A DNA stretch of 33,168 bases from a virus (Duplodnaviria; Caudoviricetes): the IMG/VR virus record IMGVR_UViG_3300022178_000333, positions 1-33,168 of that record; one strand, 5' to 3'. Shown piece by piece: positions 1-33,168 of the stretch (positions are counted from its first letter, which is position 1; each line of letters starts with the position of its first letter). Made by a program: the position numbers and the translations under genes. Below the pieces are notes generated by a model, which was given only the letters and a program-made list of their open reading frames with translations, was not told the origin of the DNA and did no database searches.

Positions 1-1100
1 AATTGCTTTACTTAATGATGCTCGACAATATGCAGCAAAATCTGGGCGTGAAGGCGAGGTTAGAACTCACTTTAATACGAATGCCTCTGCTGCAACAAAG
101 CGCAGGAATCTAGCAACAAAACGTGCTGAGGAATATAGAAACCTTAAACGCATTGAGCTAGGTCAAGGTGATCCAACAAGTCAGGCTGATCGTGAGATTG
201 TAGAAAAAGCTTTGGAACTTCAGTTATCGCCAGGTGTTTTGCTTTCTTCATTTTGGTCCAATCCAGAGCTAATGCAAACAAAGCAAGGCCAAGCAATACT
301 AAATGCTACTGGCAGTTTATCTGTAATGCCTCAATCTTTGCATGAGTCACTGTCTTCGTTTGCTAATGGTAATTTCTTAGGTGGAAGTCCTAGCGCTCTT
401 TTATCTCACTATACAAACTTTAGAGACTATGAGTACGGCGGAACAAGTATGCGGTCCGTCATGATGCAATCATTAGGTGAAGATCAAGTTGCAATGCTTG
501 ATTATCTAGCCGCTTCCGCTAGGGGCGGTATGGGTTCTGATCCAGAGTTTCTTGCAAGGGCATTTAAAGCTAAGTCTGAGTTTGAAAGTAACCCTGCATA
601 TAAAGAGCGTGTAGAGGCTTTCCTTGGCTCCTCGCTGTCAGACTACGTTTCTCAGATAGATGGCATTCAGGACGCGCCTCTGCAAGCCGTAGACGCAATG
701 AAGGCTGCTACTCTAGACCTCATGGGAATTTCCCAGCTTGGTGGGCTTAGTAAGTCAGCATTAACAGATACTTTAGAGCGACAACTAAAATCTAGATACC
801 CTAGTGGTGGTGGCATTGTAATTGGGCCTAATGGCGCTCTTAGAACATCAGCGCCTTTATCTTATGCTGCCCCAAGAAATGAAGACTTGCTTCAGGAATA
901 TATTATTGGAATGGTAACAGAAGCCGAGCCTGATGCAGAAAGACCAGAGTTTGGTGGTGATGTTGGAGCAATTGAGTTTACGGCTTCTGTTATTGCCGCA
1001 GGTAGAGTTCCATTATCAGGTAATATCTTCCTAAAACCTGTTGGGGTTCCAACGCAAGGATTGGTTCAGTACGCAGTATTTAGAAGAACTACCCCTGAGC
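1..1100. repeat. Imperfect terminal direct repeat, copy A (copy B at 32069-33168)
   Basis: aattgctttacttaatgatgctcg at 1 recurs at 32069, and both copies end with ...gaactacccctgagc. They are colinear with no indels but many substitutions. Confidence 0.97.
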
Positions 1101-14215: not shown

Positions 14216-14242
14216 AGTATTCTCCTTATATTATATAGGTTA

Positions 14243-14270
14243 TCTTACTGCATAGATGCAGCTTACTCAA
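14243..14270 (-). promoter_or_regulatory. Sigma70-type promoter TTGAGT-N17-TAAGAT containing palindrome CTGCA-N4-TGCAG (14248-14261)
   Basis: Same architecture as 17152-17180; lies upstream of the recombination operon. Confidence 0.7.
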
Positions 14271-15492: not shown

Positions 15493-15649
15493 TGATTACT
15501 TTCACTGCTGTATCGTACCTAAGTTCAGTAACTTTATTGATAGCTCTGTAATAGGTAGACGTTGGGATGTCTGCTTCCTTGAAGGCGGTCAGCAAAGAGA
15601 TGTTATACCCCTTTGCTGTGTCTGTTATGTATTGAAGATAAGATTTCAT
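15365..15649 (-). CDS. HTH-like regulator, apparently leaderless
   Basis: 'ISLLTAFKEADIPTSTYYRAINK.TELRYDTAVKV' HTH-like; no SD, and the ATG abuts the operator palindrome. Confidence 0.65.
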   Translation of the reverse strand: MKSYLQYITDTAKGYNISLLTAFKEADIPTSTYYRAINKVTELRYDTAVKVINAIERLHAIQQACEYTKRLRTSGKDVDRRSVRAKFKPRIISS

Positions 15650-15650
15650 A

Positions 15651-15664
15651 CTGCACTAATGCAG
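15651..15664. promoter_or_regulatory. Operator palindrome CTGCA-CTAA-TGCAG
   Basis: Third copy of CTGCA-N4-TGCAG; TTGACA lies upstream on the - strand (15680-15685). Confidence 0.65.
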
Positions 15665-15668
15665 CAAT

Positions 15669-16062: not shown

Positions 16063-16907
16063 GTCATTTCCAACCATTGTTTTGATTTCATTGCGTTGCT
16101 TACTAACACTTCGCGATTGTACTGCGCCTTATGAGGGGAGCGTAGTTCGCTTGTGTGACTAGACCAGTATGTAAGACAGTTATATAATGCCCACTTGTTA
16201 TTGCCCAAGTTGGCACGTTCATTGTCGTAAATGCCTAGCAAGTTTTCCAGTTGCTTTTCATTGGTCTTGGTGACTGACTGCTGACGTGTGAATGATTTGC
16301 AGACAGTCTTCTTAAAGAAGTCTTCGACTTGTGGGTGATCAAGGCTTGTAGCCATGTACCTTTGCCACTCTTCCTTGCGATTCATAAAGTGATCAAGGCC
16401 ACTGACTACCTTGGCTGCTGATCCTTCTACATTAATTGATGCGGTGTGTTTATACTTACTGCGAGCTACTGCGTCTGCTGTTGTGCAGCCATTGAGACAC
16501 CACAGTCTAAGACCATTGGCTTGCTGAGAGAAAGACCAACTAGCATCGTAGCTATTGAAGAATGATACTCGGAACTTAACATAGTCTCCGACTGCTGGCT
16601 CAACAACTAGGTCATTGAATAGTATCTCTCCTCGTAGCTTACGACCATTCTCCATAACATCTACTGAGACTTCATAATCTCTAGATAGATCAGCTGACTT
16701 CACTCCGTCGATAACAGAGTCAACTACATCTTGGTGATTAACGATCTTGTACCTTGAGCCGTGAAGCCCAAGGTTTTCATTGGTGTCTAATCGAACAACT
16801 GCTTTGTGTCCTTCGATGACATTGCCAAGCTGGTCATACACTGGCTGCTCTTCGACTTCAAAGTTGTAGTCATTGACTACTTCCATGTAACTAATTGTAT
16901 CTAACAT
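16059..16907 (-). CDS. DUF932-family protein
   Basis: 'AVVR.DT...LG.....Y.IV.H', 'NSYD.S' and 'RLWCLNG.......KH' motifs; start reassigned to MLDTIS. Confidence 0.8.
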   Translation of the reverse strand: MLDTISYMEVVNDYNFEVEEQPVYDQLGNVIEGHKAVVRLDTNENLGLHGSRYKIVNHQDVVDSVIDGVKSADLSRDYEVSVDVMENGRKLRGEILFNDLVVEPAVGDYVKFRVSFFNSYDASWSFSQQANGLRLWCLNGCTTADAVARSKYKHTASINVEGSAAKVVSGLDHFMNRKEEWQRYMATSLDHPQVEDFFKKTVCKSFTRQQSVTKTNEKQLENLLGIYDNERANLGNNKWALYNCLTYWSSHTSELRSPHKAQYNREVLVSNAMKSKQWLEMT

Positions 16908-17122
16908 TAGCCTTCTCTTTTCATTAGCTTGTTGCATTCATCTACAAGAGGGTCGAGGTCCATTTGCAGAAGCGCGATTGTAAACTTGTTGAACTCAGTT
17001 CCTTGTTCAATCCCTTCGATCTCTTCAGCAAAATACTTAAGGCATTTCGAAAGCTCCACTACTTGCTTGAGTGGCAGAGTAAGAATAACGGGCGTTTGCT
17101 CCCTGTCGATAAAGTTTGTCAT
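16907..17122 (-). CDS. Hypothetical early protein
   Basis: SD aaggag; downstream of the operator-containing promoter. Confidence 0.65.
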   Translation of the reverse strand: MTNFIDREQTPVILTLPLKQVVELSKCLKYFAEEIEGIEQGTEFNKFTIALLQMDLDPLVDECNKLMKREG

Positions 17123-17151
17123 TGCGTACTTCTCCTTTGGTTACATAGGTT

Positions 17152-17180
17152 AGCTTACTGCAAGTGTGCAGCTGTTACAA
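17152..17180 (-). promoter_or_regulatory. Sigma70-type promoter TTGTAA-N17-TAAGCT containing palindrome CTGCA-AGTG-TGCAG (17158-17171)
   Basis: The 29-bp block 17145-17173 is nearly identical to 14235-14263. Confidence 0.7.
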
Positions 17181-17191
17181 TAGTTAATTAA

Positions 17192-17211
17192 GGGAGCCAT
17201 TGCTGACTCCC
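17192..17211 (-). terminator. Hairpin after first early gene
   Basis: GGGAGUCA-GCAA-UGGCUCCC followed by UUAAUU on the - strand. Confidence 0.6.
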
Positions 17212-17225
17212 AGTAGTGAGGGGGC

Positions 17226-17654
17226 TTACGCCACCCTCTTTCTCAGGTTGCTGAAGTTATTTGGCTTGGCCTTTGTTGGCGCTGGCTTTCTGTTAGGGAG
17301 CCATGTTTCTCCGCCAGAGAATACTCCGTAGACTTCTTTGTCTGCGTTATGGCGATCGACTAGTTCGTCAAGCTCAGGCGTAAGGCGTTCAATCCAGCGC
17401 TCAGTGCGTTCCATTGCGTAGACGTTTTCTTCTTTAGCTGCGATGTCATACTCTGCAAGTGAGTCTGCGATCTGCTTGCGTTTGAAGTTAAGGCTGTTGT
17501 GTGAAGTGTAGCAGGCGTCTCTTGCGAGACCGATGAGGAACTTATCGTTAACCACAAGGCCACCAGTCTTGTTGTCAGGGTTGCTCATGTCATGATTGTG
17601 ATAGTTGATTACATCTAGTTTCAATTGCGCGAGTGTTGATAGCTTCTTAGTCAT
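17226..17654 (-). CDS. Hypothetical protein, first gene of the early arm
   Basis: 142 aa ORF with SD aggaga/agga; its start lies inside the long hairpin. Confidence 0.7.
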   Translation of the reverse strand: MTKKLSTLAQLKLDVINYHNHDMSNPDNKTGGLVVNDKFLIGLARDACYTSHNSLNFKRKQIADSLAEYDIAAKEENVYAMERTERWIERLTPELDELVDRHNADKEVYGVFSGGETWLPNRKPAPTKAKPNNFSNLRKRVA

Positions 17655-17916
17655 TTCCTAGTTCTCCTGTTCTGTGCGAGGGCCATCCCCGCAACGAGGA
17701 CTTCATGCAAGGAAGGCAAACGCCCAGCTTGCTGGGTGCTTGACGTTCGCCAGTACCAATTTGTCTCGCGAGGAATGACCCGAAGGGGCAGGGGAAATTG
17801 ATACTTGCGAATGTTTTGACGGCCATGCAATGAACAAACGAGTGCGGGGATGGTCAGAGCCTACATAACTATTAGGAGAATGACGGACTTGCGACTATCA
17901 ATACGAGCGTGATTGA
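17621..17916 (+). other. Long branched imperfect inverted repeat (structured ssDNA/RNA element)
   Basis: At least six nested paired segments plus side hairpins; see finding. Confidence 0.85.
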
Positions 17917-18080
17917 CACGGCAGTTTAGTATGTATTTCTGTCAAGCCTTTTGAGAACACCATTAGGTATAGGTTTGGAACCAATGCGTATAGTATGTGT
18001 GTTTAACCCATTGACAGACAATCCCAAGATGGTGTTTGTATGGGGGGGAAGAGGGAAGGGGGGGCCGTAAGGAGTAACTA

Positions 18081-18458
18081 ATGAATGATGTAAAACTTAG
18101 AAAGCTTACACCAAAACAGACAGCGTTAGTAGACACCATCGTAGCAAATGGATGTACCTTGAAAGTCGCTGCACCGTTGGCTGGATATGCTGATGGCGAG
18201 TCTGGAAGAGTGACTGCAACCAAGACTATGAAGTTGCCTCATGTGCAGCAGTATTTGATGCAAAGGATGAATGAGGAATTTGGGATTAGTGCTACCCTAG
18301 CTGCTGGAACTGTAAGAAGACTGGCTGTTGGAGCTAAATCTGAGTACGTTCAGCTCGAAGCAAGCAAGGATTTACTGGATAGAGCTGGCTATAAACCGAT
18401 AGATAGATCACAGGTACAGGTGGCTGGTGACATAAGAGTGACTATTGACCTAGGTTAA
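18081..18458 (+). CDS. Terminase small subunit
   Basis: 'LTPKQ.A.V......AA..AGY...A......P.V..YL' and 'SEYVQLEASKDLLDRAG'; SD aaggag. Confidence 0.8.
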   Translation: MNDVKLRKLTPKQTALVDTIVANGCTLKVAAPLAGYADGESGRVTATKTMKLPHVQQYLMQRMNEEFGISATLAAGTVRRLAVGAKSEYVQLEASKDLLDRAGYKPIDRSQVQVAGDIRVTIDLG

Positions 18459-18553
18459 TTGCATCTGGTCATAGCCCAGCTAGGGGGTAGGGGGGAAAAC
18501 TAGCGGCTAGTTACATGGTAATAGTCCCTCACTCCCACGATTATTCCAAAAGG

Positions 18554-18564
18554 TTTGTGCATTG
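18554..18564 (+). promoter_or_regulatory. Late promoter box TTTGTGCATTG
   Basis: Repeated motif; 46 nt before ATG 18611; TAGGGT lies 18 nt after TTGTCA. Confidence 0.7.
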
Positions 18565-18610
18565 TCATAATTATTTTTCTTGGTATAGGGTTCTATAAAA
18601 GGAGATTGAT

Positions 18611-18898
18611 ATGGATGTAGTAACGAAGGCGGCTGGTGCTGAGAACCAGTTTAGCGAAGCGTTGTCATTGCGCGGTGACTTTTCTCTTAGCATTTCAGGG
18701 ACGTTTGTGGGAACTGTTAGTGTTCAGCGCAGCTTTGATGGTGGGGGTTCTTGGGCTTCTGTAGATACGTTTACTGCTCCTATTGAGACTGCTGGTTATG
18801 AGCCTGTTGGCGCACAGTATCGTGTTGGCATTGCGAGTGGTGCTTATACGAGTGGGACTGCTACCTGTACACTTAGAGAGAATGACACTGGTCGTTAA
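18611..18898 (+). CDS. Small beta-rich hypothetical (possible virion) protein
   Basis: SD aaggag; 'SGTFVGTVSVQRSFDGG.SW' beta-sandwich-like. Confidence 0.65.
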   Translation: MDVVTKAAGAENQFSEALSLRGDFSLSISGTFVGTVSVQRSFDGGGSWASVDTFTAPIETAGYEPVGAQYRVGIASGAYTSGTATCTLRENDTGR

Positions 18899-18900
18899 TC

Positions 18901-19173
18901 ATGGTTGCTAAGAAGTATCAGAATCCAGAGGGCGGATTGAATGCTGCGGGTCGTGCTTATTTCAAGCGCAAGGAGGGTTCTAATTTAAAGGCTCCTCAAG
19001 GTAGCGGCACTCATGGCCGTCGAGTTTCTTTTGCTGCTAGATTTGGAGGCATGGCTGGCCCCCTTGAAGACAGCAAGGGGCGTCCCACTAGATTGAAGTT
19101 AGCATTAAAGAAATGGGGATTTGGTAGTAAGGAATCTGCCAGAGCGTTTGCTAGGAAGAATAGGAAGAGTTAG
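18901..19173 (+). CDS. Basic conserved phage protein (DUF6321-like)
   Basis: 'NPEGGLNAAGRAYF...GSNLKAP...RR.SF.ARF.GM...GRPTRL.LALKKW'. Confidence 0.65.
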   Translation: MVAKKYQNPEGGLNAAGRAYFKRKEGSNLKAPQGSGTHGRRVSFAARFGGMAGPLEDSKGRPTRLKLALKKWGFGSKESARAFARKNRKS

Positions 19174-30320: not shown

Positions 30321-33168
30321 ATGGCTGTAATCAGAGAGCAAAGACAATTTAAGATTGGCCCTGTTGGGGTTGCTCGCGCATCTGAGGGCGGTCGAATTAT
30401 TGGTGAGGCAATATCCAATAGCGCTAATCAGCTTGCAGGTGATTTTTTTAAGATGGCTGCTGTAGAGGCTGAGAAGACAGGGACAGAAGCGGGAGCGGCT
30501 GTTACTCGCGAGCAGGTAATTACAATTGATCCTAGAACTGGAAAGCCAGAAGCATTTGTGGCACCAGAGGGCTTTGGCAGAACTGCGACTGAAGCGTATC
30601 AACGTGTTGTTATGCGTAGGTTTCAACAATCGTATGATGATGAAATACAAAACAAAGCTAAAGAACTTTCTGTAAAGTATGAGAATAACCCTAATGGCGT
30701 TTCTTTGTATGAAACAGAAATGTCAGACTATATGGCAGCAATGTCAAATGAGGCTGAAGGTTCTTTTAAAACTTACATTCAGGATGTTGGAACAACTTAC
30801 CTTAACGCTACAAAAACAAATCTTGCGGCTGCACAAATCCGTAGAGAAAGAACAGCGGCGGCTACATCACAAGCTCTAGCCGTAGAGAATGGCTATGAAA
30901 GCATTGAGGGTTTAATAGCACAAATAGGTCCGTCTGCGCTTGAAGGGGCAACACAAACTAATTCGCTTATTCAACAAGTTGAAAACACTGTTAATGATGG
31001 TGTTAACTCTGGATTATTTGATAGCAGTGCTTTGTCTAGTATGAGTGAAGGCAAACAGCTTGCAGTTACTCGTGGCCTTATTCGATACGCCACAAACAAA
31101 ACCAATGATCCTGAAACCTTACAACTCTTGCAACAAGCAATCGGCACTCAGAACGCTGCATCAGTGCCAAAAGAGTTTTCTTATGTAGCATACGCTATGA
31201 TAGAAATGGGTTCTAACTATAGTGCTCTTTCTCAACTAGAGAAGTTTTCTGATGGATTGCTTTCTGACGCAGTGCAAAGAGCTAATGTAATACAGGCTCA
31301 AGAAGTTCGACAGATAGAAGCTGCTGAAGCAATAAGCGTATTTGATATGGAGCAAAATATGATTGCCTCTATTTCTAATGCGGTGGATATAGCGAGGGAT
31401 GCTAGAGTACCACCAGCAACCATCGCAGTTTATTCTGTAGACAAGTACAATCAGTACACCGACATTGCGCGCAATGCACTACGAGATGGCAAGTCAGATT
31501 TATCTAAGACAATGCTTGAAAATCGTGATAAGATTCTGGATGGCACAGTTGAAGGCTTAATGCTTCGCGCCGTTAGTGGGTTGTCAAAGAAAGAAACGAA
31601 TCAGCTTGAGAAAGCTATCTTTGATAAAAATCCTTTGCTTGCTCCACAAAGTTCACAGCAGTCACTACAAGCATTAATCAGTCTTGATTCTAAGGTTGAT
31701 CCTAAAATCCTAGAAGATTTTCTGCCTTTCATTGGCTCTTACAGAGATTCTACTGCAAAGTATATTGATAGCAACAATAAAGCTGGTGCTGCATCCCAAG
31801 CTAAAACTTTTCAGTTTCAAATTAACAATCTTAAAGGACAGCGTGGTGCTTTTGTAGGGAAGCAAGCCCAATCTATGGCTACAAAAATTTCTAAGATAAA
31901 AAATATTACTCCAGCTTTAGCAGAGTCATACTCTAAAGAAATACAATTTGCTGCAGCGCAAGCAAAAGTAAGCGAATACTTTGAGAAGAACCCATCAGAA
32001 GAAAGCGCGACAGATGCAGCTACATATCTTGCTGGTGGAAAAGCTACTAATAATTTAAGGCCAGATCAAATTGCTTTACTTAATGATGCTCGACAATATG
32101 CAGCAAAATCTGGGCGTGAGGGCGAGGTTAGAACTCACTTTAATACAAATGCCACTGCTGCAACAAAGCGCAGGAATTTAGCAGCAAAACGTGCTAAGGA
32201 ATTTTCAAACCTCAAACGCATTGAGCAAGGTCAAGGTGATCCAGAAAGCGTGACTGATCGTAAGCTTGTAGAAAAAGCTTTGCAATCTCAGTTACCGCAA
32301 GGTGTTTTGCTTTCTTCACTTTGGTCTGATCCAAATCTAATGAAAACAAAGCAAGGTCAAGCAATACTAAATGCTACTGGTAGTTTATCTGTAATGCCTC
32401 AATCTTTGCATGAGTCACTGTCTTCTTTTGCTAAGGGTAATTTCTTAGGTGGAAGTCCTAGCGCTCTTTTATCTCACTATACAAACTTTAGAGACTATGA
32501 GTACGCCGGAACAAGTATGCGGTCCGTCATGATGCAATCATTAGGTGAAGATCAAATTGCAATGCTTGATTATCTAGCCGCTTCCGCTAGGGGCGGTATG
32601 GGTTCTGATCCAGAGTTTCTTGCAAGAGCATTTAAAGCTAAGTCTGAGTTTGAAAGTAACCCTCAATATAAAGAGCGTGTAGAGGCTTTCCTTGGCTCTT
32701 CGCTGCCAGACTACGTTTCTCAGCTAGATGGCATTCAGGACGCGCCTCTGCAAGCCGTAGACGCAATGAAGGCTGCCACTCTGGACCTCATGGGAATTTC
32801 CCAGCTTGGTGGGCTTAGTAAGTCAGTATTAACAGATACTTTAGAGCGACAACTAGAATCTAAATACCCTAGTGGTGGCGGCATTGTAATTGGGCCTAAT
32901 GGAGTTCTTAGAACATCAGCACCTTTATCTTATGCTGCCCCAAGAAATGAAGACTTGCTTCAGGAATACATTATTGGAATGGTAGCAGAAGCCGAGCCTA
33001 ATGAAGGAAGACCAGTGTTTGGTGATGATGTTGGAGCGTTTGAGTTTACGGTTGCTGCTATTGGCGCAGGTAAAGTTCAATTATCAGGTAATATCTTCTT
33101 AAAACCTGTTGGGGTTCCAACGCAAGGATTGGTTCAGTACGCAGTATTTAGAAGAACTACCCCTGAGC
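30321..33168 (+). CDS. Internal virion (ejection) protein, T7 gp15-position; runs off the end and continues at the start of the window (not in ORF track)
   Basis: ATG 30321 after aaggtg, MAVIREQRQFKIGPVGVARAS...; I saw no stop, and it is in frame with 2-1423. Confidence 0.8.
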   Translation, partial: MAVIREQRQFKIGPVGVARASEGGRIIGEAISNSANQLAGDFFKMAAVEAEKTGTEAGAAVTREQVITIDPRTGKPEAFVAPEGFGRTATEAYQRVVMRRFQQSYDDEIQNKAKELSVKYENNPNGVSLYETEMSDYMAAMSNEAEGSFKTYIQDVGTTYLNATKTNLAAAQIRRERTAAATSQALAVENGYESIEGLIAQIGPSALEGATQTNSLIQQVENTVNDGVNSGLFDSSALSSMSEGKQLAVTRGLIRYATNKTNDPETLQLLQQAIGTQNAASVPKEFSYVAYAMIEMGSNYSALSQLEKFSDGLLSDAVQRANVIQAQEVRQIEAAEAISVFDMEQNMIASISNAVDIARDARVPPATIAVYSVDKYNQYTDIARNALRDGKSDLSKTMLENRDKILDGTVEGLMLRAVSGLSKKETNQLEKAIFDKNPLLAPQSSQQSLQALISLDSKVDPKILEDFLPFIGSYRDSTAKYIDSNNKAGAASQAKTFQFQINNLKGQRGAFVGKQAQSMATKISKIKNITPALAESYSKEIQFAAAQAKVSEYFEKNPSEESATDAATYLAGGKATNNLRPDQIALLNDARQYAAKSGREGEVRTHFNTNATAATKRRNLAAKRAKEFSNLKRIEQGQGDPESVTDRKLVEKALQSQLPQGVLLSSLWSDPNLMKTKQGQAILNATGSLSVMPQSLHESLSSFAKGNFLGGSPSALLSHYTNFRDYEYAGTSMRSVMMQSLGEDQIAMLDYLAASARGGMGSDPEFLARAFKAKSEFESNPQYKERVEAFLGSSLPDYVSQLDGIQDAPLQAVDAMKAATLDLMGISQLGGLSKSVLTDTLERQLESKYPSGGGIVIGPNGVLRTSAPLSYAAPRNEDLLQEYIIGMVAEAEPNEGRPVFGDDVGAFEFTVAAIGAGKVQLSGNIFLKPVGVPTQGLVQYAVFRRTTPE
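32069..33168. repeat. Imperfect terminal direct repeat, copy B
   Basis: Colinear with 1-1100. Confidence 0.97.

Follow-up and report, generated by a model that had tools for sequence, protein, structure and literature searches.

Directly upstream of the first leftward gene of an aquatic podophage, and on the strand that serves as its template, a stretch of 296 bases is predicted to fold back on itself into a long, branched rod, and the question raised by this locus is what such a structure does in a tailed virus with a double-stranded genome. We analysed it within its window, that is, the whole 33,168-nucleotide stretch of IMG/VR record IMGVR_UViG_3300022178_000333, and across its relatives. 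Promoters that are read by host RNA polymerase and are active only on single-stranded DNA (ssDNA) are established for conjugative plasmids (PMC9849209, PMC11541004, PMC12672017), with further plasmid descriptions in PMC13478746 and 10.64898/2026.01.09.698686; a literature search, with subscription journals mostly outside its scope, returned no report of a tailed dsDNA phage with an ssDNA promoter for host polymerase. By analogy with the plasmid elements, and with a probability that we put at roughly 0.6, the rod is an Frpo-like promoter of this kind, from which host RNA polymerase would transcribe the first leftward gene and perhaps also prime.

Genome layout and the first leftward gene

The podophage record is near-complete and has a terminal overlap. 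The ends of the window (1-1100 and 32069-33168) overlap at ~90% identity, which suggests a circular genome of ~32,068 bp in which two strain variants were joined at closure. From terS (18081) rightward lie the structural and packaging genes, and the leftward arm, which starts at 17654 and is likely the early arm, encodes DUF932, HTH proteins, RusA, YqaJ and an SSB-like protein. Among the 53 window proteins scanned, we found no polymerase, primase, helicase or Rep, no virion RNA polymerase of the N4 vRNAP type and no relaxase or transfer genes; PHROGs gave no match to a rolling-circle Rep among the same 53, several small ORFs being without assignment. Phage MEP301 is described as being without polymerases (PMC8024684). 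By TerL the closest cultured phage is Pelagibacter phage Hodr (63.8%), which shares the layout of the window; the DNA of 17100-18600 has no match among cultured phages. ArdC is present in relatives of the window phage. Hodr also encodes an HTH plus DnaT-like protein (L106:15431-15958), possibly a replication initiator, of which no counterpart was detected in the window.

The 142-aa product of the first leftward gene belongs to no Pfam, PHROG or Atlas family and has no tblastn match among cultured phages. Its structure model is confident and helical (pLDDT 88.7), and a fold search with that model returned nothing at E <= 0.001. Its family weakly resembles plasmid DUF2493 proteins in their N-terminal domain (hhalign 82%, E 1e-5), but only when profiles are compared, direct pairwise comparison with a plasmid DUF2493 protein being negative; the first gene of Hodr matches that domain directly (E 6e-7). 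Since all of these proteins are helical, we treat the relation as a lead. The protein has an acidic core (14 D/E vs 7 K/R), and a role as DNA mimic would be speculation. Later genes of the leftward arm are preceded by ordinary duplex promoter-like sites sharing a palindrome: at 17130-17173, 15623-15666 and 14220-14263 (all on the − strand) CTGCA-N-TGCAG stands directly 5′ of the −10 in all three, and is likely a common operator of the arm. The same promoter type stands before the first gene, an ArdC homologue, of one relative (L084), which has no rod.

On its other side the rod adjoins a conserved block (TGTCAA, TTGACA, G-tract, terS), ahead of which hairpin-plus-gene cassettes are interchangeable; upstream cassettes are swapped at the leftward TTGACA box, with loose ends at 17939. 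Between 17940 and 18016 lies an inverted TTGACA pair ~70 nt apart; in most relatives, though not in the window, such a pair encloses GTGACG-CGTCAC palindromes. Further, unrelated hairpin cassettes occupy the same slot upstream of terS in L041, L050, L063, L078-L080, L098 and L100. G-tracts at 18042-18064 and 18483-18499 flank terS and are kept across the family; they are candidate packaging signals, G-quadruplexes or R-loop sites. Of 80 terS contigs, 10 begin in the 250 nt before terS, against 0-5 in each later 250-nt bin, and 12 terminate in the 500 nt after it; both counts are confounded by the G-tracts and by shared sequence. Raised contig depth at 18333-18628, considered in the search for a genome end, is accounted for by sharing with co-occurring relatives.

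A conserved fold and the strand selected to form it

The features of the locus are collected in Table 1. Folded against shuffled controls on both strands, as the preliminary description had proposed, the 296-base rod goes far beyond chance: with RNA parameters the + strand gives −122.1 (z −6.45, 0/200 shuffles as good) and the − strand −99.0 (z −3.99, 1/200), and with DNA parameters the values are −58.5 (z −5.02) and −48.9 (z −3.66), respectively. Among 110 fixed 296-nt tiles of the window, on a grid that cuts the rod itself, the best value was −46.9 and the median −31.6. The stems named in that description all form in the folds. Five were checked pair by pair, namely 17621-30/17907-16 (2 G·T), 17633-42/17895-904, 17681-93/17843-55 and the side hairpin 17721-38 (1 G·T each) and, within the inner stem, its lower part at 17743-51/17806-14 (one G·T and one C·T); TAGGAGAA was placed at 17873-80 and the GAA mini-hairpin at 17776-90. 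Single contigs span the rod with 0-1 differences in runs X1, X2 and X11 (X1 or X2 being possibly the source sample), and it is no assembly artefact. Rfam gave 0 matches at E <= 5 in 16500-19000 and 0 at gathering score in 17 loci, and the available part of PMC5737381 describes no motif matching the rod.

Table 1. Features of the rod and its surroundings (positions in the window)
Feature	Position	Strand	Basis
Terminator-like hairpin with GCAA cap and weak U-tract, 3′ of the 142-aa gene	17192..17211	-	sequence
First leftward gene (142-aa all-helical protein)	17226..17654	-	sequence, profile, structure model
Whole branched rod hairpin, predicted	17621..17916	+ (template of gene 17226-17654)	folding, strand bias, covariation
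Lower left arm: template for codons 1-12 and ribosome site	17621..17669	+	sequence, folding
Small hairpin at predicted mRNA 5′ end	17675..17693	-	wobble lean
Internal loop, template side, facing 17835-17842	17694..17701	+	folding
Side hairpin and unpaired CTTG linker of three-way junction, template arm	17721..17742	+	family alignment
Tip module	17758..17800	+	83-93% identical to plasmid intergenic elements
TTGCGA, predicted −35 hexamer, non-template mimic arm	17805..17810	+	conservation, register
Candidate −10, weak: CAATGA (17 nt) or AATGAA (18 nt)	17828..17834	+	weakly conserved
Non-coding mirror arm copying leader, ribosome site and first codons, changing with them	17843..17916	+	sequence, pairing tests
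Conserved leftward TTGACA box, no −10 behind	17940..17945	-	TA at −10 in 1/48
Rightward TTGACA box, with a conserved G-tract, before terS	18011..18064	+	sequence, family comparison
terS and second conserved G-tract, candidate packaging or genome-end region	18081..18499	+	sequence, contig ends

Relatives were gathered through the 142-aa gene (25 loci) and through terS (best 80 of 595); sufficient upstream DNA was present at 91/103 loci, which formed 55 clusters. The design seen in the window, termed class A, occurs in 57 copies with 25 non-redundant representatives; these were first chosen with the core pattern and are mutually related, so that p-values are inflated and effect sizes carry more weight. 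A pattern scan of viral contigs yielded 96 loci, overlapping those already gathered, with the arms paired in 74/95 (4/71 in the control); 61 loci lie upstream of a member of the 142-aa family, and the core also precedes first genes unmatched by the profile of that family (13/74). A stricter junction-core pattern had 0 exact matches in a bacterial genome collection. The hairpin is real, and is conserved in a large family of Hodr-like aquatic podophages.

Variation within this family identifies the strand on which the fold has been kept. When the arms were aligned by Watson-Crick pairs only, which is neutral as to strand, the 25 representatives had, read on the + strand, 133 mismatches of the G·T kind and 29 of the A·C kind, where composition predicts 55:45; among isolated mismatches the counts were 76 and 3, with G·A about equal to G·T (77 vs 76). 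G·T exceeded A·C in 24/25 representatives, and the + strand folded better in 25/25 raw and in 22/25 against shuffles. The earlier proposal that the + (template) strand was selected to fold is thus supported. Compensating changes, whose search in relatives had likewise been suggested, were found as double changes at 14/24 predicted pairs (RNAalifold, 21 sequences, the other 4/25 having two very long tips and two hybrid frames). Moreover, when right arms and gene starts were paired across representatives, the best partner of an arm was the start of its own gene in 16/23, and this start ranked in the top three in 21/23, with a mean score of 57 for own and 35 for cross pairing (2/25 left out); the right arm is therefore kept in step with the coding sequence.

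DNA or RNA?

A bias toward G·T fits a + strand RNA as well as it fits DNA, and the preliminary description had kept as its alternative a structured antisense RNA of ~300 nt controlling the first leftward gene. The RNA fold (z −6.45) is compatible with it, and one rightward promoter-like site is present in the window as TTGATA-17-TAGTTC at 17636. However, this site starts inside the rod and its TTG is missing in aligned relatives, the 5′ end of the RNA would fall inside the coding region, and the antisense part would be wholly buried by its own 3′ arm. Isolated G·A mismatches as frequent as G·T are a better fit to DNA energetics, the core also precedes first genes outside the 142-aa family profile, there is no Rfam match, and the tip is common to plasmid elements that are read as single-stranded DNA. 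An antisense RNA is on these grounds improbable. Still more so, to the point of being a marginal candidate, is control of translation in cis, with the rod lying in a long − strand leader RNA from the TTGACA at 17940-45 and blocking the ribosome site: the − strand RNA does fold (z −3.99) with the ribosome site buried, but wobble pairs stand 133:29 against that strand and the leftward box has no −10 in 47/48 representatives.

That the fold forms as DNA is what its anatomy and its homologies, taken up below, point to. The mini-loops, which had been put forward as a mark of DNA, do not serve this purpose, since CC-GAA-GG is C-UUCG-G on the opposite strand and G-CTTG-C corresponds also to the RNA loop gCUUGc, both C-UUCG-G and gCUUGc being RNA loops. 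In a family-wide count over 20.4 kb (4/55 clusters left out), GCGNAGC occurred 17 times on the + and 5 times on the − strand, and unambiguous C(GNA)G hairpins 3 and 4 times.

Promoter-like anatomy of the rod

As in promoters of the Frpo/ssi type, a gene here is immediately preceded, on its template strand, by a long and stable stem-loop; the stem includes a predicted −35 box, TTGCGA, which is almost invariant and sits on the right arm immediately above the three-way junction. The ribosome site of the gene, GGAGA, is on the − strand at 17663-17667 ahead of the ATG at 17654. In the 22 representatives that bear the junction (4/26, without CYTG junction, being left out), a search symmetric for both arms found the right-arm heptamer off consensus in 2/22 and its partner in 15/22; one of these two deviants, a near-identical strain (L001, run X6), has TGGCGA in place of TTGCGA. 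Two hybrids with a class A core (L070, L105) carry TTGCGA exactly 17 nt before CATGAC/CATGAA, and four sister elements carry TTGACA, TTGACT, TTGACC or TTTACC, then 17 nt and CATGAC, in the same register as TTGCGA. The −10 hexamer is weak and variable, with an internal loop behind it, and several representatives lack A at −11. Many alphaproteobacterial promoters lack −7T (PMC7703639). An A/T tract resembling an UP element is found in part of the family only.

Offsets 27-37 from the start of the −35 are unpaired in 11-19 of 25 representatives, and transcription would start near 17695. The distance from junction to ATG is 74-85 nt in 59/61 loci (a redundant set). Wobbles in the leader hairpin favour the − (mRNA) strand, 15 vs 7, or by energy 19 vs 10 with 8 ties (n=37, 2/39 left out), a lean that is expected if the transcript starts in the loop. 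The tip, in turn, is freely replaced in relatives and ranges in length from 14 to 158 nt. TA is found at the −10 position of the leftward TTGAC box in 1/48 cases, against 22/48 for the rightward box, which gives no sign of a leftward duplex promoter, and a rightward promoter from the left-arm TTGACG/TTGCAG was rejected, the downstream tip varying in length as above with no −10 kept.

These features bear on whether the fold is a promoter at all, or is instead a binding site or roadblock on ssDNA for a phage protein, a recombinase or the replisome. The CTTG linker, present in 24/25 representatives (in part owing to how the set was selected), and its three-way junction would be superfluous for a bare promoter, the −10 is weak, cassettes are exchanged at fixed points adjoining the rod, and F ssp2 stalls fill-in synthesis (10.64898/2026.01.09.698686). 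We nonetheless give this explanation a slim chance, since the TTGACA-17-CATGAC register, the loop where transcription would start and the hairpin of the mRNA strand are features of a promoter.

Links to plasmid elements

The tip supplies a direct connection to plasmids. Its 42 nt match 136 plasmid records, of which 129 are conjugative or mobilizable, and in all four plasmid contexts examined the match lies just upstream of an opposite-strand DUF2493 or DUF736 gene; those of these plasmid elements that were folded form template-strand rods similar to that of the phage. The best 20 of 197 rows from blastn of 17600-17960 against plasmids all match the tip only, and no record covers 80% of the query; the homology is confined to the 42-nt tip and does not extend to the junction core. 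The plasmid hairpins (L107, L108, L111, L112, L216) share with the rod, besides the tip module (83-93% over ~42 nt), their strand with respect to the gene, template-arm side hairpins, an arm reaching the ribosome site, and downstream proteins that are weakly related (the profile match given above); they differ in junction sequence and arms, and in entering cells single-stranded by conjugation. In two of these plasmids (L216, L112) the DUF2493/DUF736 genes lie across the presumed oriT from the relaxase and point toward it, and this side, taken with the rule given in PMC11541004, makes the folding strand the inferred transferred strand.

Long template-strand rods ahead of DUF2493/DUF736 genes were observed in seven alphaproteobacterial plasmids (the five above, L113 and L115); they are likely ssDNA promoters outside the three classes known from F and pESBL. 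Separately, a small branched element lies between the rod and the TGTCAA box in L103 (2784-2869) and also in L105, L089, L082 and L077; that of L103 matches 1235 plasmid records, including the F leading region adjoining Frpo, and is possibly a primosome or ssi site.

Comparison with known single-stranded promoters and origins

Class 1 of the plasmid promoters comprises Frpo1 and Frpo2 of F (ssp1, ssiD) and ssi1-3 of ColIb-P9/pESBL, with classes 2-3 in pESBL and F (PMC9849209, PMC12672017, PMC11541004). Like its members, the phage rod is long and imperfect and lies on the template strand just upstream of a gene; its distal arm bears, below an A/T tract, a hexamer that begins with TTG, and the same gene arm of the phages includes DUF932 or ArdC genes. 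Frpo1 and Frpo2, folded from the F record, have such a hexamer beneath an A/T tract on the corresponding arm, and three Serratia Frpo′ candidates (PMC11541004, supplement 7) have TTGCGA at the corresponding place, the box being assigned by us in each case. Unlike class 1, the rod has a phage-specific three-way junction and no alignable homology to Frpo (no match to Frpo1/2 or ssi1-3 among the best 20 of 197 blastn rows against plasmids), its arm mirrors the ribosome site and first codons, and it resides in a tailed phage with a dsDNA genome, where neither relaxase nor oriT was seen and there is no conjugative leading region. The rod stands outside the Frpo sequence family, and we think it probable, if by no great distance, that it works like Frpo.

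Other precedents fit less closely. N4 hairpin promoters are short and are opened by torsion. They belong to N4-like phages, which use single-stranded promoters with polymerases of their own (PMC7145618). The resemblance lies in a dsDNA phage transcribing from locally single-stranded promoters; the window phage differs in showing no RNA polymerase of its own, and extrusion of an imperfect cruciform of 296 bp would, by estimate, be unfavourable. The single-strand origins of rolling-circle plasmids, ICEs and M13 are long imperfect ssDNA hairpins that may be read by host RNA polymerase, from which the phage departs in that no rolling-circle Rep was found and in that its structure is tied to a gene start. 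Hodr has, at L106:12166-12414, a near-perfect rod of 249 nt that mirrors the ribosome site and first codons of its first gene. With z −13.4, this rod folds about as well on one strand as on the other (−65.9 vs −63.4), and a fair duplex promoter can be read in its template arm.

Proposed mechanism and the case for priming

The preferred reading, an Frpo-like promoter, builds on the observed fold, its conservation and strand bias, the positions of the motifs and the plasmid homology of the tip, and it agrees both with the anatomy (TTGCGA register and loop) and with that homology, much as had been conjectured. In it, the single + strand would fold back and thereby likely rebuild a duplex promoter for the host sigma70 RNA polymerase, with the right arm standing in for the non-template strand and carrying the −35 and the weak −10. 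The pre-opened internal loop would probably rescue this −10 and set the start at about 17695. Travelling down the stem, the polymerase would read the left arm, and the mRNA would begin with the small leader hairpin; behind it the mirror arm could re-pair with the template, stripping leader and ribosome site off it and leaving them translatable. The 142-aa gene would thus be on only as long as the partner strand is missing here; fill-in to a duplex would turn the promoter off, and a transcript still hybridised could, as with Frpo, prime the missing strand.

As for where ssDNA would come from, the likeliest source would be 5′-to-3′ resection that begins at a genome end on the terS side, carried out by YqaJ of the phage or by nucleases of the host, since it is precisely the + strand that such resection would lay bare. 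Replication by strand displacement comes second; a start near terS would also expose the + strand. Cruciform extrusion from supercoiled duplex was rejected, at a cost of +314 kcal/mol against 165-238 of relief, a rough estimate that covers the window rod and not the near-perfect rod of Hodr.

Priming might also be the chief function, with the rod a single-strand origin (sso/ssi) at which RNA polymerase or a primosome makes the primer for the − strand on a displaced + strand, expression being incidental. The proteome is in keeping with this: no DNA polymerase, primase or helicase is among the 53 proteins scanned, and YqaJ, the SSB-like protein and RusA point to recombination-linked replication. 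The rod would be displaced last if displacement started near terS. Frpo itself primes in vivo (10.64898/2026.01.09.698686). Yet priming needs neither a mirror of the ribosome site and first codons, nor a fixed distance to the ATG, nor a 5′ hairpin of the mRNA strand, and the mirroring speaks for the gene being transcribed rather than for priming by itself. In L084 the first gene is preceded by an ordinary promoter-like site, with no rod, and there is no linked rolling-circle Rep with a double-strand origin (no Rep by PHROGs). The initial argument that a phage with no primase would use the element for priming is weakened by the HTH-DnaT-like protein of the relative Hodr; earliest expression, the other role then suggested, is conjectural, and duplex promoter-like sites of the ordinary kind serve other genes of the arm. 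We regard a primarily priming role as unlikely, if the least so of the alternatives weighed here.

Implications for the phage family

Conjugative plasmid DNA enters the cell single-stranded. If a tailed phage with a dsDNA genome has kept a promoter of the ssDNA type, this would imply a single-stranded phase, at entry or in replication, that has gone unrecognised, and the family affected is large and aquatic, with no polymerase, helicase or primase detected in it. The early arms of these phages would also be linked to the leading regions of plasmids, through control elements as well as genes. The promoter claim lends itself to a direct in vitro test with one 300-nt strand, and Hodr on Pelagibacter HTCC1062, a cultured relative with a rod at the same place, offers an in vivo system. 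We entertain, as a tentative idea more apt to fail than to hold, a plasmid-style entry: the first-entering end of the genome would be single on the + strand, and swappable fold-back promoters on it would fire genes of the leading-region type, prime fill-in and shut themselves off once the DNA is duplex, the mirror arm meanwhile freeing the mRNA. If this were true, the genes fired would be those of the 142-aa family and, elsewhere, of other cassettes, and a plasmid-style entry programme would span a widespread family of tailed dsDNA aquatic phages.
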